Assembly (NCBI GenBank): GCA_034521515.1
Contig: JAXHMH010000002.1
Span: 512,444 to 576,443, forward strand
DNA length: 64,000 nucleotides
Direction of reading: 5' to 3'
From: Candidatus Saccharimonadota bacterium
Lineage (GTDB): Bacteria; Patescibacteriota; Saccharimonadia; Saccharimonadales; JAXHMH01
Shown here: piece after piece, positions 3,241 to 52,527 of the stretch
How positions within the stretch are numbered: the stretch's first letter is position 1
How the letters are laid out: each line of letters starts with the position of its first letter
Position numbers and translations under genes: made by a program
Notes under the pieces: generated by a model
Seen by the model: the letters and a program-made list of their open reading frames with translations, nothing else
Databases searched by the model: none
What the model was told of the DNA's origin: nothing

Positions 3241-3309
3241 GCACATTTTGTTTTTAGAAAAAGCAGAAGAGCTTTGACCTCAAACTGTTTAACAGATATA
3301 ATTACACCA

Positions 3310-6300
3310 ATGAAGTGGTTGTGGCTACGGAGGGTAGCAGGTCAGGTCGGGGTGGTGGCGCTATTGCTCGGAATAGCGTTTTTTGCGGCCACACAATCAG
3401 CAGCTGACGGCGCCTGGATGGACGACGACTGGCAACACAGAAAGCTCATCACGATCGATGAGACAATGGTCTCTGGTGGGAGTGATTTAGCGAACTTTCC
3501 TATTTTGGTATCAGTTACCGACACGGACCTACGGAGTACCGATTTTGGCGGCGGGGTGGCAAATGTAGATGCCAACGACATTGTATTTACGCTCGATGAC
3601 GGCACAACACTGCTTGCGTATGAACTAGAGAGTTATAACGACCAAACTGGGGATTTGAATGCGTGGGTACGACTGCCATCCCTGTCTGCGACCATCGAGA
3701 CAGAATTGTACATCTACTACGGTAATGAGCTGGCAACGAACCAACAAGATCCGGACAATGTCTGGCCAGCCGATTATGTTATGGTGCAGCACCTTCAAGA
3801 GCAATCAGGATCTGGGAATTTTTTGGCAGATTCAACCAGCGTCGGGAACGACGGTATCCCTTTGGGTACGACACCAGCATTTAACTCCAGTTCCAGGATT
3901 AACGGAGGCTGGGGGTATGGTGGCAATAACCAGCAACGCATCGAAATAGCTGATAATACCAGTTTGCAGTTAGCGGATTCATTTACAGCAGAAGCATGGG
4001 CGCGGTTTACAAGTTGGACGACGCCAGACCATAACCCTGTTCTATGGAAAGGGTCGCAAATCGGGTGGGGAAATAATTATAACTTTAGAATCGCAGTTAG
4101 TAACGGAGCCCCTACTTGGGGGGTGACATGTAGTGCTGAGGGTTGGTTTGCTGGGGGTACGGTATCCTTGAATACCTGGAACCACTACGTTTTGACGTTT
4201 GACGGTACAACCGTCCGAGGTTTCTTAAATGGCACAGAAGTTGGTTCGACAACCGACTGTAGCGGACAATCGCTTAATACTATGGCGGGGAACCCGGTGC
4301 GTAGTGGTTTTGGGTACCGTAACAGTCCAACCCAGGAAACGCACATGGCGGGTGATGTTGATGAGCTACGGATAGCCAACCAAGCCCAGAGCTCAGCATG
4401 GATTCAGACTGGGTATAACAACATGAATGCCCCGGAGACGTACATTGGTTTTGGCCCCGAAGAAGACCGGGCGCCCGCCGTCCCCCAAACCCCCACTCTC
4501 CACGACTCAGGTGGCTCCACCCAACTGGCCTTTAACAACAGCCGTATAGATACTCAAACGCCTACCTTCCGTGTCTCAACTCCTGCAGATGACAACTACA
4601 ACCAAATCCAGTTAGAACTCAACACCGAATCTGACTTCTCTGGCACCAGCTACACCCAAACAACCACCGGTGCCTACATCACCAACGACCAATACAATAT
4701 CCCTGCCAATAGTCTTTCTCCAAGTCTCCCCACTACCGATAATGCAACCTACTACGTCCGTGTCCGAGCCTCCGCCGACGGAGGCACGACCTGGGGCAAC
4801 TGGTCTACAGACAACGCCTGCTGTGACCCATGGAGCTTTACCTACAGCAGTACAGAGGATGAGATGAGTTGGTTCCAGCAAACAGACGTCCAGTTTGACA
4901 CAAGCACGCTAGATGCTGCAGTTACGAATGATGGCGTGCTATTAGCGGCAAGCTCGTTTTCGGCAACTGGCGGGACCATTACTACCATTGGAGATAGCCG
5001 GTATCACGTTTTTACAAGCGATGGCAATTTGACGGTGACTGGGGATTCGTCAACAGGTGAGGTGCTAGTAGTCGGTGGTGGCGGTGGTGGCGCTGGCTCA
5101 GCAGGAAACGCTGGTCGTGGCGGTGGTGGCGCTGGTGGACTAGTCCATGATGAAAACTTTTCACTCAATAGCGGGAGTTATTCAGTTACCGTAGGCACCG
5201 GTGGAGCTGGCGGTGCAGCTTCTGGAGCAGACGGCAGCCAAGGGAGTAACTCATCATTTGATAGTCTTGTCGGAATAGGCGGCGGTGGCGGTGCTGGTTT
5301 GAATACCAACGGGGGAGCTGGTGGGTCTGGTGGTGGTGCCGGAGTGAACAATCTTACTCTGTCAGGTGGCGCTGCGCAGCAGCCAGGTTCAAGCTCCGGT
5401 GGATTTGGTAGTCAGGGCGGCACAGCGGATATATATGCGGTGGGTGCTGGTGGCGGCGGTGGCGGTGGTGCCGGTGCAGCAGGCGGTGCGGGCACGGCAA
5501 GTGCTGGCGGTTCGGGCGGTGCAGGCTTAGAGTTTTCTCAATTTTCTGCGGTTGGTGGATCACCTGCTGGATGGTTTGCTGGTGGTGGCGGCGCATCAGC
5601 TGGTACAACCGGGGGGCCGGGCGGTACTGGCGGTGGTGGTACAGGGTCAACTGATACCTCTTCAGCACAGAGTGGCGTAACAAGTACAGGTGGAGGTGGT
5701 GGCGGTTCGCAGGGTACCGGTGGCGGTGGCGGTGATGGTGGCTCTGGCGTCGTCATTGTTCGTTATGATGTATCGTTTGCTCCGACTGGCAGTGTTACTT
5801 CAGAACCAATCAATTATTCAAGCGTTCCAAGTGCTCTCACGTGGGACGAAATGGTCTGGGAGTCTGATGAGTCTAATGGGTCAATAGAAATGCGGTTGCT
5901 GTACTCAGATTCCGGTACATGTGATGCACTGGTTTCCGACACAGATCTAAGCGGAAACAGCACTGGTTTCACGACTTCGCCAGTCGACATAACGGGGCTT
6001 GATAGCAGTACGTATCAACAGCTTTGCCTCGAGGCTACGCTCACAGAAGACGGTGGATCGCCCGTGCTGCAAAGCTGGGGCATACGCTGGGAGAGGTTCT
6101 TGCCCGCCGTCCCCCAAACCCCCACTCTCCACGACTCAGGTGGCTCCACCCAACTGGCCTTTAACAACAGCCGTATAGATACTCAAACGCCTACCTTCCG
6201 TGTCTCAACTCCTGCAGATGACAACTACAACCAAATCCAGTTAGAACTCAACACCGAATCTGACTTCTCTGGCACCAGCTACACCCAAACAACCACCGGT

Positions 6301-9285
6301 GCCTACATCACCAACGACCAATACAATATCCCTGCCAATAGTCTTTCTCCAAGTCTCCCCACTACCGATAATGCAACCTACTACGTCCGTGTCCGAGCCT
6401 CCGCCGACGGAGGCACGACCTGGGGCAACTGGTCTACAGACAACGCCTGCTGTGACCCATGGAGCTTTACCTACAGCAGTACAGAGGATGAGATGAGTTG
6501 GTATCAAGCAGATGGAGCGCAATTTGCCACAAATGAGCTCACTGATACGGTTGTTGACGGTGATGATGTGGTGTTGGGCGCGGTCGGATCAGGGATTACT
6601 AACCCGACACAATTGACGACATATACGTCGACAACCAATCAGGCATCTGCAACAACCGCGAGTGTCTCGCCGGCCGGCAACGCCTTGATAGTTGTGCTGG
6701 TGGGCACCGGCAGTACTACAACACACACGCATAATGCCGTGACGAGCACCTTTGGCACAGTGGGCGGGTTTACGCAGCGCACCACACAACTCGGTACGAG
6801 CAATACCTTTTACAGGTATTCAATTTATACTGCTGTGACAACGGCAAGTCCAGGCTCTGGTACCATTACCGTTAATTACAGCGCTAATACCCCAAACCAA
6901 GTGCATTATGTATTGCAAGTGGCGGATGGTTTTGACACATCCGACCCGGTAATTCAGACGATTACAGCGACAACCGCAGCAACCACGCTGTCGATGGGCT
7001 TTCCTGCTACTCCGCAAACAAGCTCGCTCGTAATTGGCGGTATTGCCACGAGGCGAGGGACAGATATTGCAGGCACAAGTGGCTATACAACGTTTGCAAA
7101 TATTGATACCGGTGGGGGCACAAATGCCCGCGCGCAATCCCAATATCGTGTCGGTGACGCCGGAATAGGACTAAACTGGACAGGAGACGGGACCCTAGAA
7201 AATATGGTTGCTGGAGCGGTAGAGATACGTGCTGAAACAGCAGATGATGCAACGATTATGTCATCAGAAATCTTTTATGACTACGCACGGAGCCCGCAGA
7301 CTTGGGGTGAGGCGTCGTTTACGTCAAATGAAACAAATGGTGATATCAAATTACGCCTGTATCATAGTTTATCCACAGCCTGCGATACACAGATTCCGAA
7401 TGGAGATCTAGCAGGAAACACCGTTGGCTTTGACGCAACAGATGGATCAATTGACTTATCAGGGCTTAACACGACAACATATGACCAAATTTGTATACAG
7501 GCTACATTGTCAGATGTCGCAGGTACGCCATATTTACAGAGCTGGTCAGTTTCGTGGGAGACAGAACCCAACTTTGCGCCGAATGAACCGTGGGCTTTGG
7601 CTCAAACCAAGACCGATACCTCGCCTTTAGCGGTTGGTGATTGGACGAATGAAAGCTCAGTACGCTTTACAGCCAGTGCGACTGATTTTGATGCAACAGG
7701 TGACTTAGAGCTCTGTGTTGAAGCTCGCCCAATCGGTATCAGCTTCTTGGATGTGCAGAATGACTGTGGTGAACCCGTGGAGTACCAAGCTCCGATTTAC
7801 GAGTGTGACCCAACCGGGAATGCGCTATTTGAAAAGTATGATGGAGTAGCCGGCACAGACATTGCATCACTCTATGCAGCTCCGGCTTTCCCGAATAGTC
7901 CTAGTTCAAATCAAACGATAAGTGGCGGTTCGCTGGAGGGTCCAGTAAATATTGATGATACGTATGGTGGTCGTCTGTCGGCCTTGATTTGCCCACCACA
8001 AGATGGTGATTACACATTTTGGTTGTCGGCCGACGATAATGCTGAGCTGCGCATAAGTACAGATGTGAACCCGGCAAATGTCACAACTATAGCTTCCGTA
8101 CCTGGCTGGTCTGGCGTAGATGAGTGGATAATGTACCCTGAGCAGCAATCTGCACTCGTCACGCTTGAAGCAGACCAGTATTACTACATTGAAGCCAATT
8201 ACAATGAAGGAGCTGGTGGTGACCATGTTCAGATTGGGTGGACATTGCCCGACACGACAGTTGACCGACCGATTTCCGGTACGTACTATTCATTGCCTTC
8301 CGAAGAAGAAGAGCGAACGCTCATTTCTGGCGAGATTCCAACATTAACCGCAGCGCTTAACCTGGCGGATGCGGATAGCTATCATTGGCAAGCTCGGGTG
8401 CGTGACCAAGGCGGCCTCTACTCGAGCTGGGTAAACTTTGGTAGTAACCCAGAAGAGGAGCGTGACTTTGGGATAGACACAACTGCACCAACTAGTGGGA
8501 GTGTATACGATGGCGATGACCTTGGAGAGGACATGATGTTTAATGATGGGTCACTAGATACACTGTCGGCGAACTGGGAAGGCTTTGACTTTGATGTATC
8601 AGGAACGGTTGGCTATGAATATTCAATCGGTACAACGCCGGGTGGTACAGACACAGTTGATTGGACGGATGTCGGTACGGATACCTCGTTTACTATCAGC
8701 AGTCTAGAGCTCCAGACAAACCACGTTTACTACACGAACATTCGGGCTACAGATGTTGCTGGCAATACAGCGGTAGTGAGTTCCGATGGTCAATATGTTT
8801 TACCGACGCTGAGTTTTAGTGTATCGACTTCAAACATTACATTTGAGAATCTTGGTGCCAGTAATGACCGCACAGATTCTGAGGATGTCACGCTTACGAC
8901 CTCCACGAATGCCTACGCTGGCTATACGGTTCGGGCTCGAGCAACAGGGCAACTCAACGCAAATGGGTCGCATGATCTTCCATGGTTTAGCGCAGGGTCG
9001 TATGCTTCTCCGGTTGCCTGGGAGGATAGCAGTACCTGGGGGTACGGCTACACCTCAAGCGATACCAATGTGCAAGGTTCCAATAAGTTTGGCGATGGAA
9101 CATTGTTTGCTCCATTTACCACGCTTGCGCCTGGCGATATTGTGGCTGATAACACCGACAACACAACTGGTGTATCTATACAGGACGAGGAGTTTACAAT
9201 CACGCACCGGGTGGTTGCCCCAGAAGACCAGCCAGCTGGTTTCTACTCCACGACAATTTATTACACAGTGACAGCCGATTACTAA
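3310..9285 (+). CDS. Giant secreted multi-domain surface protein (DUF2341-like, LamG-like, Gly-rich, PA14-like and WxL-like C-terminal modules)
   Basis: Uninterrupted ORF; the track starts at TTG 3274, and ATG 3310 gives MKWLWL plus a TM/signal segment. N-terminal WQHRKLITID...LYIYYGN resembles DUF2341, and WNHYVLTFDG...DVDELRIAN resembles LamG. There is a long GGxGG region. GDYTFWLSADDNAELRIS...YYYIEANYNEGAGGDHVQIGW resembles PA14. The C-terminus is homologous to that of ORF 10393..11412. Confidence 0.85.
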   Translation: MKWLWLRRVAGQVGVVALLLGIAFFAATQSAADGAWMDDDWQHRKLITIDETMVSGGSDLANFPILVSVTDTDLRSTDFGGGVANVDANDIVFTLDDGTTLLAYELESYNDQTGDLNAWVRLPSLSATIETELYIYYGNELATNQQDPDNVWPADYVMVQHLQEQSGSGNFLADSTSVGNDGIPLGTTPAFNSSSRINGGWGYGGNNQQRIEIADNTSLQLADSFTAEAWARFTSWTTPDHNPVLWKGSQIGWGNNYNFRIAVSNGAPTWGVTCSAEGWFAGGTVSLNTWNHYVLTFDGTTVRGFLNGTEVGSTTDCSGQSLNTMAGNPVRSGFGYRNSPTQETHMAGDVDELRIANQAQSSAWIQTGYNNMNAPETYIGFGPEEDRAPAVPQTPTLHDSGGSTQLAFNNSRIDTQTPTFRVSTPADDNYNQIQLELNTESDFSGTSYTQTTTGAYITNDQYNIPANSLSPSLPTTDNATYYVRVRASADGGTTWGNWSTDNACCDPWSFTYSSTEDEMSWFQQTDVQFDTSTLDAAVTNDGVLLAASSFSATGGTITTIGDSRYHVFTSDGNLTVTGDSSTGEVLVVGGGGGGAGSAGNAGRGGGGAGGLVHDENFSLNSGSYSVTVGTGGAGGAASGADGSQGSNSSFDSLVGIGGGGGAGLNTNGGAGGSGGGAGVNNLTLSGGAAQQPGSSSGGFGSQGGTADIYAVGAGGGGGGGAGAAGGAGTASAGGSGGAGLEFSQFSAVGGSPAGWFAGGGGASAGTTGGPGGTGGGGTGSTDTSSAQSGVTSTGGGGGGSQGTGGGGGDGGSGVVIVRYDVSFAPTGSVTSEPINYSSVPSALTWDEMVWESDESNGSIEMRLLYSDSGTCDALVSDTDLSGNSTGFTTSPVDITGLDSSTYQQLCLEATLTEDGGSPVLQSWGIRWERFLPAVPQTPTLHDSGGSTQLAFNNSRIDTQTPTFRVSTPADDNYNQIQLELNTESDFSGTSYTQTTTGAYITNDQYNIPANSLSPSLPTTDNATYYVRVRASADGGTTWGNWSTDNACCDPWSFTYSSTEDEMSWYQADGAQFATNELTDTVVDGDDVVLGAVGSGITNPTQLTTYTSTTNQASATTASVSPAGNALIVVLVGTGSTTTHTHNAVTSTFGTVGGFTQRTTQLGTSNTFYRYSIYTAVTTASPGSGTITVNYSANTPNQVHYVLQVADGFDTSDPVIQTITATTAATTLSMGFPATPQTSSLVIGGIATRRGTDIAGTSGYTTFANIDTGGGTNARAQSQYRVGDAGIGLNWTGDGTLENMVAGAVEIRAETADDATIMSSEIFYDYARSPQTWGEASFTSNETNGDIKLRLYHSLSTACDTQIPNGDLAGNTVGFDATDGSIDLSGLNTTTYDQICIQATLSDVAGTPYLQSWSVSWETEPNFAPNEPWALAQTKTDTSPLAVGDWTNESSVRFTASATDFDATGDLELCVEARPIGISFLDVQNDCGEPVEYQAPIYECDPTGNALFEKYDGVAGTDIASLYAAPAFPNSPSSNQTISGGSLEGPVNIDDTYGGRLSALICPPQDGDYTFWLSADDNAELRISTDVNPANVTTIASVPGWSGVDEWIMYPEQQSALVTLEADQYYYIEANYNEGAGGDHVQIGWTLPDTTVDRPISGTYYSLPSEEEERTLISGEIPTLTAALNLADADSYHWQARVRDQGGLYSSWVNFGSNPEEERDFGIDTTAPTSGSVYDGDDLGEDMMFNDGSLDTLSANWEGFDFDVSGTVGYEYSIGTTPGGTDTVDWTDVGTDTSFTISSLELQTNHVYYTNIRATDVAGNTAVVSSDGQYVLPTLSFSVSTSNITFENLGASNDRTDSEDVTLTTSTNAYAGYTVRARATGQLNANGSHDLPWFSAGSYASPVAWEDSSTWGYGYTSSDTNVQGSNKFGDGTLFAPFTTLAPGDIVADNTDNTTGVSIQDEEFTITHRVVAPEDQPAGFYSTTIYYTVTADY
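4473..4873 (+). repeat. Copy 1 of a 401-bp perfect direct repeat inside the giant CDS
   Basis: Base-for-base identical to 6102..6502 by my reading. Offset is 1629 bp (543 codons, in frame). Encodes APAVPQTPTLHDSGG...STEDEMSW. Confidence 0.9.
6102..6502 (+). repeat. Copy 2 of the 401-bp perfect direct repeat inside the giant CDS
   Basis: Identical to 4473..4873. The domains flanking each copy are homologous but diverged. Confidence 0.9.
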
Positions 9286-13974: not shown

Positions 13975-14155
13975 CGGGGTGTGGCCCCGCCTGTCTGGCC
14001 GAGCCCCCTGTCTTTCTGGCAAGAAGGCCAGGCAGGACGGACAGGGCAGTTGGCTAGCGTGAGAAGTGCCAGTGGCACTTCGCAAGGGAATCCACTCTTG
14101 CAAACTTGTTTGCTAAGATGTGGTGACGGGGTCGCAGAATGTGACCGCGGTTTGG
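13975..14155 (+). pseudogene. Interrupted 5'-half copy of tRNA-Pro
   Basis: cggggtgtggc, gcagttggctagcg and cgcggtttgg match tRNA-Pro positions 1 to about 36, in order. They are separated by inserts of 60 nt (13986..14045) and 86 nt (14060..14145). There is no matching 3' half. Confidence 0.75.
13986..14045 (+). repeat. 60-nt hairpin insertion element, copy A
   Basis: About 90 percent identical to 28161..28220 by my reading. Removing it restores a contiguous tRNA-Pro sequence (gtggc|gcag). Confidence 0.8.
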
Positions 14156-14205
14156 CCAAACCGGTTAGGACAGAACGTTAACAATTAACAAATAGATACA
14201 CCTAT

Positions 14206-14282
14206 CGGGGTGTGGCGCAGTTGGCTAGCGCGCGCGGTTTGGGACCGTGAGGTCGAAGGTTCGAGTCCTTTCACCCCGACCA
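14206..14282 (+). tRNA. tRNA-Pro (anticodon TGG), CCA encoded
   Basis: Manual cloverleaf: acceptor CGGGGTG/CACCCCG, anticodon loop TTTGGGA, T arm GAAGG-TTCGAGT-CCTTT, 77 nt. Confidence 0.9.
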
Positions 14283-14384
14283 ATAAAAAAAGGTTACCTT
14301 GTGTAGCCTTTTTTTATTGGTTAGAGTCAACGGCTCGGTTCTTCGACACAGATTTGCACCAGCAAATATGCAAGTCGAAGGTTC
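14268..14384 (+). repeat. 117-bp direct repeat, copy 1 (tRNA-Pro 3' end, bidirectional terminator and hairpin)
   Basis: Matches 14633..14749 with one mismatch. Contains the 14-nt inverted repeat ccaataaaaaaagg...cctttttttattgg. Confidence 0.85.
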
Positions 14385-14476
14385 GGTGTAGCGCAGCGTA
14401 GGCGAGAAAGCGCTTTAGCATTTTCTCGGCAAGCAAGCGGAAAAGGACGTAGTCCGCTGTCCTTTCACCCCGACCA
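14374..14476 (+). pseudogene. tRNA-Pro T-arm/acceptor fragment split by a 74-nt insert
   Basis: gtcgaaggttcg, then an insert (14386..14459), then tcctttcaccccgacca. The break falls right after TTCG of the T loop. Confidence 0.7.
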
Positions 14477-14564
14477 TGAAAAAGGAGTCTCTTCATTGAG
14501 ACTCTTTTTTCATGCTTGGCTGAAAAGATTTGGTTCTTCGACTCGACAGCTTCAGCTGGCGATA

Positions 14565-14647
14565 GTCGAATGGTTCGGTCGTTAGTCACAGACCCCAGCG
14601 TTAGCGGGCGTCTGGATTAACGTGCGTTGTCTCTTTCACCCCGACCA
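14565..14647 (+). pseudogene. Second, diverged tRNA-Pro T-arm/acceptor fragment split by a 54-nt insert
   Basis: gtcgaatggttcg, then an insert (14578..14631), then tctttcaccccgacca. Confidence 0.65.
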
Positions 14648-14749
14648 ATAAAAAAAGGTTACCTTGTGTAGCCTTTTTTTATTGGTTAGAGTCAACGGCT
14701 CGGTTCTTCGACGCAGATTTGCACCAGCAAATATGCAAGTCGAAGGTTC
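14633..14749 (+). repeat. 117-bp direct repeat, copy 2
   Basis: See 14268..14384. Offset is 365 bp. Confidence 0.85.
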
Positions 14750-14837
14750 AAGCCTGCCCCGCACCAGAATTGGCGCGCGGGTTCTTTCACTGAGCTTAAC
14801 TTAGCCTTTAGTTATAGCGCTTGCTACAATAAGGCGT

Positions 14838-15482
14838 ATGATTCCTGCTTTGGCGGCGATTGCCGTCGTCTTTATTATCCTGCTGGCCAGCGAGACGTTG
14901 TGGCGTAATAAAAAATTGCGCGGGCTAGAGCAGTCCCGCAAGTTAGTACACATTACTGTCGGATCGTTTATTGCTAGTTGGGCGTTTTTTATGCCACTGT
15001 GGCATATCCAAATCATTGCAGCATTAATGCTGGTCGTAGTGTTGGTCTCACGCACTCTAAAGGTCTTTCGTGGCATTCATTCGGTAAAACGTAAAACCTA
15101 TGGAGACTTACTGTACCCGATAAGCATTGGCTTGGTTGCAGCCCTAGCTTCATCACCATGGATCTTTGCTGCGGCAATCCTGCACATGAGCGTAGCGGAC
15201 GGCTTGGCTGCGGTTATCGGCAATAAGTTTGGCAAAGGTAACTCCTATAAGGTGTTTGTCGAGACAAAATCTATAATTGGGACTGCAACTTGCTTGGTGG
15301 TTTCGGCACTTATTATAAGTTGGATTATATTGTGGAGCCCGGCTGGGTTTGACGTGCTTATGTGGCCAGCTATTCTTTGGGTTCCGGTACTTGTTGCAGC
15401 GGTAGAAAATTTATCGCCCTACGGCACAGACAATCTCACAGTTCCGATCATCGTAGTATTATCGCTCAGTAGCCTGTTATAG
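14838..15482 (+). CDS. Polytopic membrane protein, CTP-dependent polyprenol/diacylglycerol kinase (CdsA/dolichol kinase-like) family
   Basis: Multiple TM helices. SVADGLAAVIGNKFGKG resembles the cytidylyltransferase-family motif. Confidence 0.55.
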   Translation: MIPALAAIAVVFIILLASETLWRNKKLRGLEQSRKLVHITVGSFIASWAFFMPLWHIQIIAALMLVVVLVSRTLKVFRGIHSVKRKTYGDLLYPISIGLVAALASSPWIFAAAILHMSVADGLAAVIGNKFGKGNSYKVFVETKSIIGTATCLVVSALIISWIILWSPAGFDVLMWPAILWVPVLVAAVENLSPYGTDNLTVPIIVVLSLSSLL

Positions 15483-19015: not shown

Positions 19016-19390
19016 GCGGGTGTCGTATAATGGCTAATATACCTGCCTTCCAAGCAGGCGATGCGAGTTCGCCCCGGTCATACGACGGGGCGCCCTATCG
19101 GATGATAGGGCGATTCTCAAGAAGCAACAATTAACAATCTACGGGTGTCGTATAATGGCTAATATACCTGCCTTCCAAGCAGGCGATGCGAGTTCGCCCC
19201 GGTCATACGACGGGGCGCCCTATCGGATGATAGGGCGATTCTCAAGAAGCAACAATTAACAATCTACGGGTGTCGTATAATGGCTAATATACCTGCCTTC
19301 CAAGCAGGCGATGCGAGTTCGCCCCGGTCATACGACGGGGCGCCCTATCGGATGATAGGGCGATTCTCAAGAAGCAACAATTAACAATCT
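19016..19390 (+). repeat. Three tandem 125-bp units, each a truncated tRNA-Gly copy with a 41-nt T-loop insert
   Basis: Units start at 19016, 19141 and 19266 and are identical except for the first base. Each holds tRNA-Gly nt 1-56, a two-hairpin insert, attctc, and a 22-nt spacer. Confidence 0.9.
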
Positions 19391-19465
19391 GCGGGTGTCG
19401 TATAATGGCTAATATACCTGCCTTCCAAGCAGGCGATGCGAGTTCGATTCTCGCCACCCGCACCA
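19391..19465 (+). tRNA. tRNA-Gly (anticodon TCC), CCA encoded
   Basis: Acceptor GCGGGTG/CACCCGC, anticodon loop CTTCCAA, T arm GCGAG-TTCGATT-CTCGC, 75 nt. Confidence 0.9.
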
Positions 19466-19498
19466 AATTATTGCTTCGCCACCCTAATCGATTATTCC

Positions 19499-19762
19499 AT
19501 GTTCTACGTATACTTCCTCAAGCTTAATAATGGCCAGATATGCACCGGCTACACCGAAAACCTAAAAAGACGCAAAAGTGAACATGATTTGGGCAAGGTT
19601 GCTTCAACTATGTCCCGACTTCCTTGTTGTTTAGTAGGATACGAAGCGTATGCTTTAAAGACAGATGCGATGCGACGAGAGAAGTTTCTTAAAACAACAG
19701 AAGGTAAAAAACTTTTTAAACAACAATATCGTGATATAATCACCTCTGTTGTGCCTCGGTAG
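19499..19762 (+). CDS. Small GIY-YIG nuclease-family protein
   Basis: ATG 19499 gives MFYVYFLKLNNGQICTGYTENLKRRKSEH (GIY-YIG core). The last 10 nt overlap the next tRNA. Confidence 0.8.
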   Translation: MFYVYFLKLNNGQICTGYTENLKRRKSEHDLGKVASTMSRLPCCLVGYEAYALKTDAMRREKFLKTTEGKKLFKQQYRDIITSVVPR

Positions 19763-19834: not shown

Positions 19835-20341
19835 ATGAAACAGATTAGTGTTAATGAGTTATATCAAGAAGGGTACAGTTATACTCTCGATGAACCAGCT
19901 GGGAAGAATTTTCATCCTGATTTTGAACCGGAGCTGACACCGAAAGAGATGCTGCAACTTGGTGTTTTTGGTGGAGATTACTTTCAGGCTATTCCAAACG
20001 AATTCCCAGAAGACTGGTTTGAGGGGGCTAAGTTATCCGAAATTGGCACGGCTGATAAAAACCTGAATTATTTTAAGGTAAACGCCAGCCAGTCACTCAA
20101 GGAGTGGCAAAGAAAGGGTTGGATATATTTTGAAGATCCTAAAGGTTGGTTTTTGTGGTACTGCCGCTACTATCGTGGCAGGCGAATACCAGAGGAGGAT
20201 GAGCGGCAAATCAAGCGCTGGCGAGCGATGAATCGGCATAAATCACAGGTAGAAAAGTTTTGTGAACCAGGCGATATGACATGTCGCCCACGCCAGCGGC
20301 AGGCGTTGCTACACTGGGCATACGATTCCCGCAAAATCTAA
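19835..20341 (+). CDS. Conserved hypothetical protein (168 aa)
   Basis: Clean ORF with a W/R-rich C-terminal half (GWFLWYCRYYRGRR...QIKRWRAMNRH). I cannot name a family. Confidence 0.6.
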   Translation: MKQISVNELYQEGYSYTLDEPAGKNFHPDFEPELTPKEMLQLGVFGGDYFQAIPNEFPEDWFEGAKLSEIGTADKNLNYFKVNASQSLKEWQRKGWIYFEDPKGWFLWYCRYYRGRRIPEEDERQIKRWRAMNRHKSQVEKFCEPGDMTCRPRQRQALLHWAYDSRKI

Positions 20342-20376
20342 AGAATAGGTTTAGCCCAACAAAACCCAAGGTAATT

Positions 20377-20961
20377 ATGAATAGTCAGAGCAGCGGGTTC
20401 GGAGATACACCAGAGACCGTCCAATTGACCATCTACAGGGATGGCTGCTACCATTGTTGTATGTCAACACGTCCTTGCCAGGTTTGTAACAAAAAATTTT
20501 ACGCCAAACCAAGTCATGTTCAGAAGGGTTGGGGTAAATTTTGTTCAAAAGCCTGCCAGTATACAGGGCAGAAGACGGGGCAGACTTATCCTTGCCACCA
20601 ATGTAAACAGCAGGTATACAGGACTGTCAAAGACAGGAGGCGCTCTAAGAGCGGAAAATTCTTTTGCGGTAGGTCCTGTCAAACAGTATGGAGGAACAGT
20701 ATGCTATACGCTGGCAAGCGTCACTCCAACTGGAACGGTGGCAAGGCATCGTATAGGAGCATCTTACTTAAGACAGGATTACCTAGAGTTTGCACTAGAT
20801 GCCGGTTAACTGATACACGGATTTTAGCAGTACATCATAAGGACAGAAACCGTAACAATAATGACGCATCGAATTTGATATGGCTTTGTCATAATTGCCA
20901 TTATTTAGTTCATCATTATGTTAATGAAGGAGCTGGGTTTTTGGCTCCTCGGACTATATAG
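20377..20961 (+). CDS. HNH endonuclease with Cys-rich N-terminal region
   Basis: LAVHHKDRNRNNNDASNLIWLCHNCHYLVHH is an HNH motif, and several CxxC pairs lie upstream. The start is uncertain (20377 or a later Met). Confidence 0.8.
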   Translation: MNSQSSGFGDTPETVQLTIYRDGCYHCCMSTRPCQVCNKKFYAKPSHVQKGWGKFCSKACQYTGQKTGQTYPCHQCKQQVYRTVKDRRRSKSGKFFCGRSCQTVWRNSMLYAGKRHSNWNGGKASYRSILLKTGLPRVCTRCRLTDTRILAVHHKDRNRNNNDASNLIWLCHNCHYLVHHYVNEGAGFLAPRTI

Positions 20962-27578: not shown

Positions 27579-27905
27579 ATGGCATATAAGGACATTGAGG
27601 ATAGCAGGGCAGCCATCAGACGCCATTACTATGAAAACAAAGAGAAATACTTAGCAAAGAACAAACTTAGACGCCAAAAAATAAAAGAGTATGTGAATAA
27701 AATTAAGGCTTCCACTCCATGTGCAGATTGTAAGAATTCCTACCCATATTACGTTATGGATTTTGACCACTTGAGAGACAAGACGACTATAATTAACAAC
27801 TTTGTGAGAGCCTCGAATTTATCTGGCTTAAAAAAAGAGATAAAAAAGTGCGAAATTGTTTGCGCAAACTGCCATAGAATGAGAACATTTAATCGTATTG
27901 AGTAA
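27579..27905 (+). CDS. Small HNH endonuclease
   Basis: CADCKNSYPYYVMDFDHLRDK...CEIVCANCHRMRT. Confidence 0.75.
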   Translation: MAYKDIEDSRAAIRRHYYENKEKYLAKNKLRRQKIKEYVNKIKASTPCADCKNSYPYYVMDFDHLRDKTTIINNFVRASNLSGLKKEIKKCEIVCANCHRMRTFNRIE

Positions 27906-27916
27906 ATTCAGTTTAA

Positions 27917-27993
27917 GCACCCGTAGCTCAGCGGATTAGAGCACTGGTCTTCGGAACCAGGTGTCGCAGGTTCGAATCCTGCCGGGTGTACCA
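27917..27993 (+). tRNA. tRNA-Arg (anticodon TCG), CCA encoded
   Basis: Acceptor GCACCCG/CGGGTGT, anticodon loop CTTCGGA, T arm GCAGG-TTCGAAT-CCTGC, 77 nt. Confidence 0.85.
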
Positions 27994-28087: not shown

Positions 28088-28229
28088 GGTTCGGCGTATG
28101 TGAGTCCGCTGGTCAGCGGACGAACGAAGAAGCCCATCTTTGATGGGCGCTATCCTGCCGCCCGCCTATCTGACCGAGTCTCCTGTCTTTCTGACAAGAA
28201 GGCCAGGCAGGACGGACAGGGGTGTACCA
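28088..28229 (+). pseudogene. tRNA-Arg 3' fragment split by two inserts
   Basis: ggttcg, a 58-nt insert (28094..28151), atcctgccg, a 60-nt insert (28161..28220), then ggtgtacca. Removing the inserts gives the T-loop-to-CCA sequence of the upstream tRNA-Arg. Confidence 0.75.
28161..28220 (+). repeat. 60-nt hairpin insertion element, copy B
   Basis: Homologous to 13986..14045. Excision restores cctgccg|ggtgtacca exactly. Confidence 0.8.
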
Positions 28230-51270: not shown

Positions 51271-51307
51271 TGCAAGGTTAGACCTTGCAACAAGGTCTAA
51301 CCTTGCA
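51271..51307. repeat. REP-like hairpin flanking the transposase gene (left)
   Basis: tgcaaggttagaccttg caa caaggtctaaccttgca: 17-bp stem, 3-nt loop. Confidence 0.8.
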
Positions 51308-51337
51308 GTTTCCGGGTTGTAGTTTCGTTATTTAGGA

Positions 51338-51967
51338 TTAAGTATCTGCCAGGATTCCTTTTAGGAGCTTCAAATCCTTACGTTGTGCCTTGTACTCACT
51401 TACGAATTTCCTATAGTCTTTGGTGCTGTTGTCGTGAAGTTCCATGATCTTGTCCGGCCTAAGCCATTCTGCCGTACGTGTCTTCATATAGTACGGAAAA
51501 CTGGAATAGTCATAGGTTTCGTAGTCGACATTGATGTCTTGAGGATTCAGGTGTATGTACCGGCTAATATGTAATAAATAGTCATCCTTATCTATAAGAC
51601 TTGCTTTGTAGGTGCCCTGGAATAAGCTGCCAACTCGCTTGTGGCGCTTATTGAAATACATGCTATAAGCTGTCATTAGTCGGTGCATGAGTTCTGGCAG
51701 GCCTTTATCTTCCTGATTGTAGACAAGGAGATGGAAGTGATTTGGCATCAGGCAGAAAGCCAATAACTCCACTTTGTTTAACAGATGTGCAAAATCTCTG
51801 CCATACTTATCTTGAAGTGGTTCGTTAGACAGGTGGCGCTTAAAAAGGTGTAAAAAATAAAAGTAGTCATCTGAGTCTAGAAAAACGTCAGATTTATTTA
51901 CACCACGATTATAAACGTGGTAGTAGTTATCGCTAGCTAACTGTTTTACTACATGACGACTCGGCAT
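51338..51967 (-). CDS. IS200/RAYT-type Y1 (HUH) transposase
   Basis: YYHVYNRGVNK, the HUH motif PNHFHLLV and SRYIHLNP. ATG 51967 preferred; the track start at 52021 runs through the REP hairpin. Confidence 0.8.
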   Translation of the reverse strand: MPSRHVVKQLASDNYYHVYNRGVNKSDVFLDSDDYFYFLHLFKRHLSNEPLQDKYGRDFAHLLNKVELLAFCLMPNHFHLLVYNQEDKGLPELMHRLMTAYSMYFNKRHKRVGSLFQGTYKASLIDKDDYLLHISRYIHLNPQDINVDYETYDYSSFPYYMKTRTAEWLRPDKIMELHDNSTKDYRKFVSEYKAQRKDLKLLKGILADT

Positions 51968-51971
51968 AATA

Positions 51972-52006
51972 ACAAGGTCTAACCTTGCAACAAGGTTAGA
52001 CCTTGT
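51972..52006. repeat. REP-like hairpin flanking the transposase gene (right)
   Basis: acaaggtctaaccttg caa caaggttagaccttgt: the same arms as the left copy, in swapped order. Confidence 0.8.
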
Positions 52007-52140: not shown

Positions 52141-52179
52141 AAGAAAAAGCCCCATGCAGTTTGTTTGGGGCTTTTTCTT
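52141..52179 (+). terminator. Rho-independent terminator after tRNA-Glu
   Basis: 14-bp stem aagaaaaagcccca / tggggctttttctt. Confidence 0.75.
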
Positions 52180-52212
52180 TGGTGGTTTCCCGCAGGGAAA
52201 CCGAACCCCGAG

Positions 52213-52319
52213 GGGGTTCGCATAACGTCAAATGTATCGTTTGACGTTATTTAGCCGATGGTATAACTAGAAGCAAAGCGGATAGTTATACCATCAAAGC
52301 GTTGGAGCCGTGAGGTCAC
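52213..52319 (+). pseudogene. tRNA-Glu T-arm/acceptor fragment split after TTCG by an insert of about 87 nt
   Basis: ggggttcg, then an insert with two hairpins of 11-12 bp, then ccgtgaggtcac. Confidence 0.65.
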
Positions 52320-52368
52320 AGTTTTTGTTTGGTGGTCCGCCGACTGGCGGACGAATCAAACCCCAGGC

Positions 52369-52438
52369 GGTTCGCTAATCCCCCGCCAACTTGTTGCCAA
52401 ACGGGCGGATTATATTTCCATATTCCCGGTGAGGTCAC
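52369..52438 (+). pseudogene. Second tRNA-Glu T-arm/acceptor fragment split after TTCG by a 47-nt insert
   Basis: ggttcg, then an insert, then attcccggtgaggtcac. Confidence 0.65.
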
Positions 52439-52527
52439 AAATGCCATAAATTAGAAAAAGCCCCCTTAGCTCACCCTGTAGCACCACCTGATTACAGACC
52501 CATGGTTATGATAAACTTATTTATAGT

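Follow-up and report, generated by a model that had tools for sequence, protein, structure and literature searches.

A 60-nucleotide hairpin-forming element biased towards tRNA sequence in Saccharibacteria, probably a non-autonomous mobile DNA element

Among the described systems closest to the one presented here are the Rickettsia palindromic elements (RPEs), of which R. felis carries 728, with 85 in open reading frames (ORFs) and 3 in RNA genes (PMC1166351), and REP (repetitive extragenic palindromic) elements, intragenic examples of which exist, notably in repair genes (PMC3733652). The tRNA group I introns of Patescibacteria are anticodon-loop introns and are unrelated to the element treated here (PMC13011429). 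In the following we analyse a 60-nucleotide (nt) element, the 60-mer, that occurs twice in a 64,000-nt stretch of a Candidatus Saccharimonadota genome (contig JAXHMH010000002.1, positions 512,444 to 576,443; the window denotes this whole stretch), each time inside a partial copy of a tRNA gene. We consider it quite probable that the 60-mer represents selfish DNA which forms a hairpin, is non-autonomous and is mobile in Saccharibacteria, or was so until recently, on the basis that it behaves as an exact 60-bp unit found in either orientation, at sites polymorphic for its presence or absence, and in unrelated targets that include translated copies. A strong bias for tRNA sequence is its distinctive trait. 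Elements of this kind are known; the family itself, its conservation across the phylum and its preference for tRNA appear to be undescribed in the literature searched, in which we found no Saccharibacteria repeat of such a kind.

A repeat search of the window returned a 61-nt family of two copies at 92% identity (13986-14046 and 28161-28221), in agreement with the original prediction, which had reported two 60-mers (13986-14045 and 28161-28220) of about 90% identity whose exact deletion restores tRNA sequence. The 20-mer GGCCAGGCAGGACGGACAGG, taken from the 3' part of the element, matches only those two sites of the window, and shuffled sequences lead one to expect none. Junctions were checked by matching the seven tRNAs called by ARAGORN back to the window with blastn-short, together with reading of the sequence, and at both sites deletion of the 60 nt does rejoin the tRNA. 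Copy 1 (13986..14045; plus strand, as are all tRNA genes, tRNA pieces and inserts located in this paragraph) separates nt 11 from nt 12, in the D-stem, in a tRNA-Pro 5' remnant that lies beside the intact parent gene, tRNA-Pro(TGG), at 14206..14282. By blastn-short, nt 1-11 of the remnant (13975..13985) are identical to 14206-14216 at 11/11 positions and nt 12-25 (14046..14059) are identical at 14/14, such that taking out 13986-14045 leaves the continuous GTGGC/GCAG of tRNA-Pro nt 1-25, with unique boundaries. Beyond a second insert (14060..14145, discussed below) the remnant resumes with nt 28-37 (14146..14155), stops in the anticodon loop and passes into its own inverted copy (CGGTTTGG followed by CCAAACCG). 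Copy 2 (28161..28220) interrupts the acceptor 3' strand, at nt 67/68, of a tRNA-Arg 3' remnant whose intact parent, tRNA-Arg(TCG), is located at 27917..27993. This remnant consists of GGTTCG (28088..28093), representing the end of the T-stem 5' strand plus the T-loop up to G57; a 58-nt two-hairpin insert (28094..28151; fold z = -3.0) at T-loop position G57/A58, present where the original prediction had placed it and accompanied by loss of the T-loop A (A58); nt 59-67 (atcctgccg, 28152..28160); and, behind the 60-mer, nt 68-76 plus the CCA end (ggtgtacca, 28221..28229). The pieces at 28152-28160 and 28221-28229 adjoin directly in the intact tRNA-Arg(TCG), and the boundary of copy 2 is ambiguous by one G. 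A second copy of the 58-nt insert was not found in the window or in the retrieved loci introduced below. Copy 2, which carries 5 substitutions, 2 of them breaking the main stem, is already decaying, and both window copies are passengers in dead partial tRNA copies beside intact genes, where they are harmless.

Further copies were found in other Saccharibacteria genomes and metagenomes. Beyond the window, 17 copies were identified on other Saccharibacteria-type contigs, giving 19 in all, with 14 distinct sequences (12 besides those of the window) and about 15 independent flanks; loci retrieved from carriers and their relatives are labelled L plus a number. A scan of one genome per species located the 20-mer in two other Saccharibacteria metagenome-assembled genomes (MAGs; L001/L002 and L006/L012), the remaining matches being chance occurrences in high-GC actinomycete and other genomes, while a metagenome scan with a two-block pattern contributed 13 more true copies and a peptide search two more. 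The retrieved loci yielded no additional diverged copy, IMG/VR viral contigs searched with the 20-mer and the two-block pattern yielded no true copy, and no Rfam family matches the 60-mer. Copies measure 60 nt (61-62 nt in two cases) and all begin with CCCGCC; those from the DNA scans end in ACGG[A/G]CAGG, and the L072 copy, from the peptide search, ends in ACGGGAAAG. Identity ranges from 80 to 98% with a mean of 89% (84% when the columns set by those patterns are excluded), and 41 of 60 columns are invariant, 19 of which lie outside pattern-fixed positions; the RecG proteins of the carriers L013 and L006, by comparison, share 48% identity. GC-richer carrier contigs occur as well (L018/L028 and L019). 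Flanks differ at every copy and the element is therefore not part of a larger duplicated block, as had been predicted from the window alone.

Six of the approximately 15 contexts are tRNA-derived, five of these with the element in sense orientation (binomial P = 3e-7 for six of about 15, assuming that 2% of the genome is tRNA-derived). Clean insertion in tRNA sequence is seen in five more cases outside the window (L002, L024, the antisense L014, and L016/L017/L022). In L002 and L024 the element occupies tRNA-Leu 3' remnants at T-stem nt 62/63 (caagtcc, the element, then t[c/t]tc), with a cargo gene lying between tRNA-Leu and its 3' remnant in L024, and L001 represents a microhomology-deletion derivative of this tRNA-Leu arrangement; in L014 a tRNA-Leu 3' end holds the element in antisense. 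In L016, L017 and L022, it is a full-length tRNA-Gly(CCC) gene that is split, between nt 11 and 12, and this D-stem split is common to tRNA-Gly(CCC) and the tRNA-Pro remnant of the window, two unrelated tRNAs. Neither ARAGORN nor Rfam calls the interrupted tRNA-Gly(CCC), and in silico removal of the 60 nt from L016 and L022 results in ARAGORN calling a 75-nt tRNA-Gly(CCC) in both alleles. Relatives retrieved through the neighbouring cobO gene carry the same tRNA-Gly(CCC) uninterrupted and with the same flanks (L064, L065, L069, L070 and L071), and therefore provide true empty sites. Set against the filled sites of L016, L017 and L022, these empty sites, which the original prediction had asked to look for, show that exactly 60 bp were inserted without duplicating the target site or removing any of its bases. 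For the loci of the window itself, the closest homologue of the flanking gene at 14838-15482 is 59% identical and tRNA-Pro synteny is lost, and exact-protein matching returned only a contig that breaks at the repeat, or nothing.

The tRNA-Gly(CCC) loci have further features of their own. In L062 (795-937; also in L063) a 5' remnant comprising exactly nt 1-11, broken at the same 11/12 point, is followed by 56 nt of promoter-like sequence with hairpins and a GTGTATAAT box, and then by an intact, slightly different tRNA-Gly(CCC), a layout that mirrors the tRNA-Pro arrangement of the window. In L064, tRNA-Gly(CCC) is followed, immediately after its CCA end, by a 1.15-kb insertion (313-1457) whose far end repeats the CCA; the insertion contains a 289-aa ORF, matching no family but showing the zinc-protease motif HEFAH, and, close to the tRNA, a copy of the tRNA T-arm in antisense. 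The tRNA-Gly(CCC) of L016, L022, L064, L069 and L070 displays a T-loop of TTAGAGC or TTAGAAT, with A at position 56, and a D-loop of AGTGTTA that lacks the usual GG. Covariation of positions 19 and 56 at this elbow is possible, and so unusual an elbow may mark a specialised tRNA-Gly, possibly a non-ribosomal one.

Targets outside tRNA sequence include protein genes, in which the element is translated. In L013 it lies antisense inside recG, where a 20-aa insert occurs at exactly this point that is absent from the RecG of L006, and a yjbR-like gene has been entered at two different codons and in two frames (L020/L029 and L072), gaining 20 aa, removal of the 60 nt from these genes restoring a conserved VYK[I/V]GHSE. 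The three antisense frames are free of stops in most copies examined, and the element survives inside protein genes because 60 equals 3 x 20 and because its antisense frames lack a stop codon. Openness in all six frames was considered as a family trait and rejected: it is confined to some copies, that at 13986 included, and one of the sense frames is interrupted by two stops in the consensus. Between genes, the element is found in hairpins, on the 5' side of the loop at its very edge (L015 and L018/L028), within a unit common to L019 and L023, and, in L006/L012, as a 95%-identical core at the apex of a 225-nt unit bounded by inverted repeats, the flanks of which are about 75% identical. In L073 it directly precedes the FTIVELL motif of a pilin-like ORF.

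In the 60-mer, the stem of about 11 bp (cctgtctggcc/ggccaggcagg) in the original prediction holds for copy 13986 only; copy 28161 has two A.C mismatches, and the part constant throughout the family is just 7 bp (CCTGTCT/AGGCAGG, one U.G), both strands of which were fixed by the search pattern and are uninformative with respect to covariation. Two mutually exclusive apical hairpins show one compensatory pair each, and a pseudoknot helix (P2) has one pair that is unpaired in 5 of 14 sequences, with no compensatory change. G.U wobble pairs fit the plus strand only. The motif CCTGTC(T) occurs twice directly and twice inverted, the inverted repeat is subterminal (4 nt lie beyond it on the 5' side and 9 nt on the 3' side), and a CGTC tetranucleotide is found at the stem foot on the minus strand. 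Covariation thus gives weak support to the stem and modest support to a selected fold overall; it is conservation of primary sequence that stands out.

Movement of the 60-mer could proceed via a single-stranded hairpin intermediate, which might be processed in trans by an enzyme of the HUH/Y1 type (like those of IS200/IS605 or the REP-associated tyrosine transposases, RAYTs) or a comparable one. Such a route would explain why insertion is clean and duplication-free, why the structure is asymmetric between the strands, and why DNA that readily forms hairpins or is heavily transcribed, tRNA genes for instance, is favoured; single strands and cruciforms would form at tRNA genes as well as in hairpin loops. 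The only transposase-type gene of the window encodes a Y1 (IS200-like/RAYT-like) transposase (51338..51967, minus strand; Pfam E=1e-11, below the NCBIfam RAYT cut-off), which we infer to be a candidate for the trans-acting enzyme. Two perfect 33-nt palindromes (CAAGGTTAGACCTTG CAA CAAGGTCTAACCTTG and its mirror), unrelated to the 60-mer, bracket this gene (51273-52005), which ends 60 nt upstream of tRNA-Glu. The original prediction had also drawn attention to an HNH gene just upstream of tRNA-Arg, and the plus-strand ORF at 27579..27905, a free-standing HNH endonuclease gene directly upstream of tRNA-Arg, does match phrog_3106 of PHROGs (E=8e-24), with no match in Pfam or NCBIfam; it is a neighbour of tRNA-Arg for which no link to the 60-mer was shown. 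Nuclease genes by tRNAs at 19436-19762, 20281-20961 and 27579-27905 are of the free-standing homing type, with a GIY-YIG gene between tRNA-Gly and tRNA-Arg(TCT) and HNH genes upstream of tRNA-His and tRNA-Arg(TCG). Phages of the T4 and T5 type show a similar layout in their tRNA regions, but the genes described here belong to a cellular chromosome.

A number of observations weigh against a mobile element. No transposase is linked to the 60-mer, the Y1 gene of the window being flanked by different palindromes, and tblastn found no Y1, HNH or GIY-YIG homologue in 168 kb of other carrier loci, nor did the retrieved loci contain a full-length parent element. Left flanks end in TGGC, TAGT, GCCG, GTCC, ATGA, CTGA, TGAA, CCAA, GTGC, CCGA and TTTC, and the sites have no target sequence in common apart from a weak T at +1 of the right flank, seen in about 12 of the 15 junctions compared. 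Genomes seem to carry low numbers of copies, 2 in the 64 kb analysed here and a few per MAG. With 20-22 of the 60 positions set by the search patterns, conservation looks higher than it is and covariation in the main stem is masked. Finally, an identity of 85-98% between genomes with approximately 50% identical proteins is unusual for decaying selfish DNA and could reflect a selected function.

This last point leads to an alternative that we regard as improbable: that the 60-mer is a module selected by the host, serving as a DNA site for protein binding or as a small structured RNA, held near-invariant by selection and copied by duplication or recombination. Its very high conservation across deep Saccharibacteria lineages would fit such a module, as would the direct and inverted CCTGTC(T) motifs, which resemble protein-binding repeats, the position at the apex of a larger hairpin in L015 and L018/L028, and the near-identical core retained between more diverged flanks in L006/L012. 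However, the contexts share no common function, ranging from dead tRNA pieces and a D-stem to recG, two yjbR sites and intergenic loops; both orientations occur; presence and absence differ between close relatives; and copy 28161 has accumulated substitutions that break the stem.

In a second alternative, the 60-mer acts at the RNA level as an intron-like or self-cleaving intervening sequence that is removed from precursors, leaving the interrupted tRNA genes functional. Consistent with this are the sense orientation in five of six tRNA contexts, G.U wobbles that make sense on the plus strand only, the perfect cloverleaf that tRNA-Gly(CCC) keeps despite the interruption in two alleles, with compensatory changes between their T-stems, a predicted fold of the interrupted precursor that retains the acceptor, anticodon and T arms, and a topology superficially like a P4-less fold of the hepatitis delta virus (HDV) type. 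Yet the differences between the alleles are clustered in the T-arm, at 9 of 24 nt compared to 0 of 51 elsewhere, which looks like a recombination patch rather than slow compensatory evolution, and the element is antisense in L014 and both antisense and translated in frame in recG and the yjbR-like genes. Splicing is unlikely because the kept reading frames would then be pointless. Specific candidates of this type were also rejected. Introns of groups I and II require a catalytic core of roughly 200 nt or more, or domains I-VI, far above 60 nt, and Rfam gave no ribozyme or intron match at E<=10. An archaeal-type intron would call for a 4-bp helix, with a 3-nt bulge on either side, joining the intron start to that of the 3' exon; inspection revealed no such bulge-helix-bulge pairing, the start CCCGCC not being complementary to the 3' exon starts GCAG, TCAG, GGTG and TCTC. 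A minimal ribozyme of HDV-like or 'theta' type, suggested by the order of complementary segments, would need a nested double pseudoknot (P1, P2, P3 and P1.1) with a catalytic C in J4/2; the 60-mer fails at P2, the inconstant pseudoknot helix, and has a 4-nt loop as L3, so that P1.1 is impossible. We therefore consider an intervening sequence very unlikely, and of the 'mobile or intron-like' character originally proposed the first half stands, on the strength of polymorphic sites and unrelated targets, whereas the antisense and in-frame copies, the size and the missing bulge-helix-bulge speak against the second. An attachment-site arm left by a tRNA-integrating island or phage, with the tRNA fragments as attL/attR scars of an integrase, is highly implausible: tRNA 3' ends repeated with terminators downstream of tRNA-Pro, Arg, Glu and Leu, the cargo gene of L024 and the insertion behind the CCA end in L064 would suit it, but an arm of this sort would adjoin the tRNA core, near a tyrosine or serine recombinase gene, and not have tRNA sequence on both sides, the in-frame recG and yjbR copies and the L064/L022 pair of empty and filled sites would be unaccounted for, and, as led us to reject a phage or integrative-element origin in general, there is no true match in IMG/VR and no integrase, recombinase or reverse transcriptase among the window's 52 ORFs of >=110 aa (49 scanned against Pfam).

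Alongside the 60-mer, which we continue to view as a mobile DNA element, the window contains extensive tRNA debris, with five of its seven tRNAs flanked by partial copies of themselves. Most of these partial copies are broken at T-loop G57/A58 and carry unique hairpin inserts of 40-90 nt there, often with an inverted copy of the adjacent tRNA piece beside the break. For example, three tandem, 100% identical 125-nt units (19016-19465) precede the intact tRNA-Gly(TCC), each composed of tRNA-Gly nt 1-57, a 40-nt two-hairpin insert at G57/A58, nt 58-63 and a 22-nt spacer with the 12-mer AACAATTAACAA. This 12-mer (14180-14191, 19126-19137, 19251-19262 and 19376-19387) is confined to junctions between a 5' remnant and the next intact or repeated copy in the Pro and Gly arrays, and could represent a promoter element or else a piece of a common cassette. 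Downstream of tRNA-Pro (14283-14790) are two 3' units in the order terminator, inverted T-arm piece, GTCGAAGGTTCG, unique hairpin insert of 57-73 nt, TCCTTTCACCCCGACCA and terminator, including a 117-nt repeat at 99% identity (14268-14384 and 14633-14749), and the array ends in a chimera, GTCGAAGGTTCA joined to AGCCTGCCCCGCACCA, that connects the tRNA-Pro T-arm to the 3' end of another tRNA. Similarly, two 3' units behind tRNA-Glu (52141-52440), broken after GGTTCG, feature perfect palindromes (CGAACCCC gag GGGGTTCG; hairpins of 11 and 12 bp) and the 3' pieces CCGTGAGGTCAC and ATTCCCGGTGAGGTCAC.

The second insert in the tRNA-Pro remnant (14060..14145, plus strand; 89 bits) belongs to a three-hairpin family, E77, for which our model finds 10 copies in all, among them those of L001 (1372-1586, 1794-1884, 1981-2071 and 2911-3000), L002 (205-296 and 438-513) and L024 (583-671 and 1474-1558). 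E77 elements are approximately 80-90 nt in length with conserved linkers (GAGA, CGCAAGG and GGGG) and a loop of ACTTGTT, and compensatory changes occur in 13 of 27 predicted pairs. They are always located within pseudo-copies of tRNA-Leu or tRNA-Pro, in the T-loop, the anticodon stem or at D-stem/26, and L001 has a full-length tRNA-Leu pseudo-copy interrupted twice by E77. Rfam contains no match to the family, and the 28 viral matches of its 3' motif in IMG/VR are all chance matches in high-GC coding sequence. E77 may be more interesting than the 60-mer itself. A wider proposal, which we put forward as speculative and doubtful, is that Saccharibacteria harbour an undescribed guild of structured mini-elements, comprising at least the 60-mer and E77, that home to tRNA genes by structure or position, the debris around five of seven tRNAs reflecting repeated hits followed by regeneration of the gene from cassettes of promoter plus missing part, and the mobilising activity being a new one, neither an integrase nor a classical transposase. 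Target positions of such a guild would be D-stem 11/12 (two unrelated tRNAs), T-loop G57/A58 (six remnants) and the anticodon stem, and the HNH or GIY-YIG nucleases encoded beside tRNAs, or else an RNA intermediate, might take part in mobilisation. Elsewhere in the window, a 2003-aa ORF (3274-9285) has long glycine-rich repeats of the GGTGGTGGCGG type (families D3 and D5) and contains 300 nt in duplicate (4473-4772 and 6102-6401), and its product is probably a surface protein.

These findings have practical as well as evolutionary implications. ARAGORN and Rfam miss tRNA genes split by the element, as for tRNA-Gly(CCC) in L016 and L022, so that annotations of Saccharibacteria MAGs can list too few tRNAs; in addition, short spurious ORFs are called over the 60-mer. 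Tiny episymbiont genomes too carry active-looking selfish DNA, and the conservation of the 60-mer across the group implies horizontal spread, plausibly by natural DNA uptake. Its filled and empty sites offer a clean natural case of tRNA genes being chosen by a duplication-free mini-element, and the element also points to a widespread pattern of tRNA-gene debris in the phylum.

Among known systems, palindrome elements derived from IS200/IS605 share with the 60-mer clean, duplication-free insertion, a strand-specific hairpin and the possibility of precise excision, but the hairpins at their two ends differ from each other and they enter the DNA 3' of a fixed target of 4-5 nt, whereas the 60-mer shows a single main hairpin and the tetranucleotides next to it vary across the 15 junctions compared. 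MITEs (miniature inverted-repeat transposable elements) are likewise small, non-coding, non-autonomous and scattered, with inverted-repeat structure and insertion polymorphism; however, their inverted repeats are terminal and their insertion duplicates the target site, while that of the 60-mer is subterminal, no parent insertion sequence occurs in the retrieved loci, and no duplication is seen at the tRNA-Pro, Arg, Leu, Gly and YjbR junctions or between L064 and L022. Transposed tRNA introns of Thermoproteales archaea, reportedly described by Fujishima et al. in 2010, provide another parallel, being near-identical short inserts at varied positions of different tRNA genes, including the D- and T-arms. 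Those introns are cut out by the splicing endonuclease at a bulge-helix-bulge and occur in sense only, in functional tRNA genes; the 60-mer, in contrast, is bacterial, has no bulge-helix-bulge, and is found also antisense, in protein genes and between genes.

Two further systems come nearer. REPs and their paired form, REPINs, are imperfect hairpins that insert without target-site duplication and sometimes lie inside genes, as the 60-mer does in recG; the window has a RAYT-like Y1 gene, and the CGTC at the stem foot is the only agreement in head sequence. Unlike the 60-mer, with its 60 nt, single occurrences, 2 copies in 64 kb and a Y1 gene flanked by palindromes of the CAAGGTTAGACCTTG type, REPs are 20-40 nt long with a GTAG or CGTC head, abundant, often arranged in doublets, and flank their RAYT. 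RPEs differ in their length of about 100-150 nt, compared to 60 nt here, and the 60-mer belongs to a different phylum, so that sequence homology is not expected, and is apparently low in copy number, strongly biased towards tRNA and far better conserved between distant genomes. Both, however, are short palindromic selfish repeats of a reduced, host-dependent bacterium, neither has a known transposase of its own, and both invade non-coding DNA, ORFs (in frame, adding a peptide) and RNA genes, each of which we observe for the 60-mer. It is to the Rickettsia palindromic elements and the intragenic REPs that the behaviour of the 60-mer is closest.

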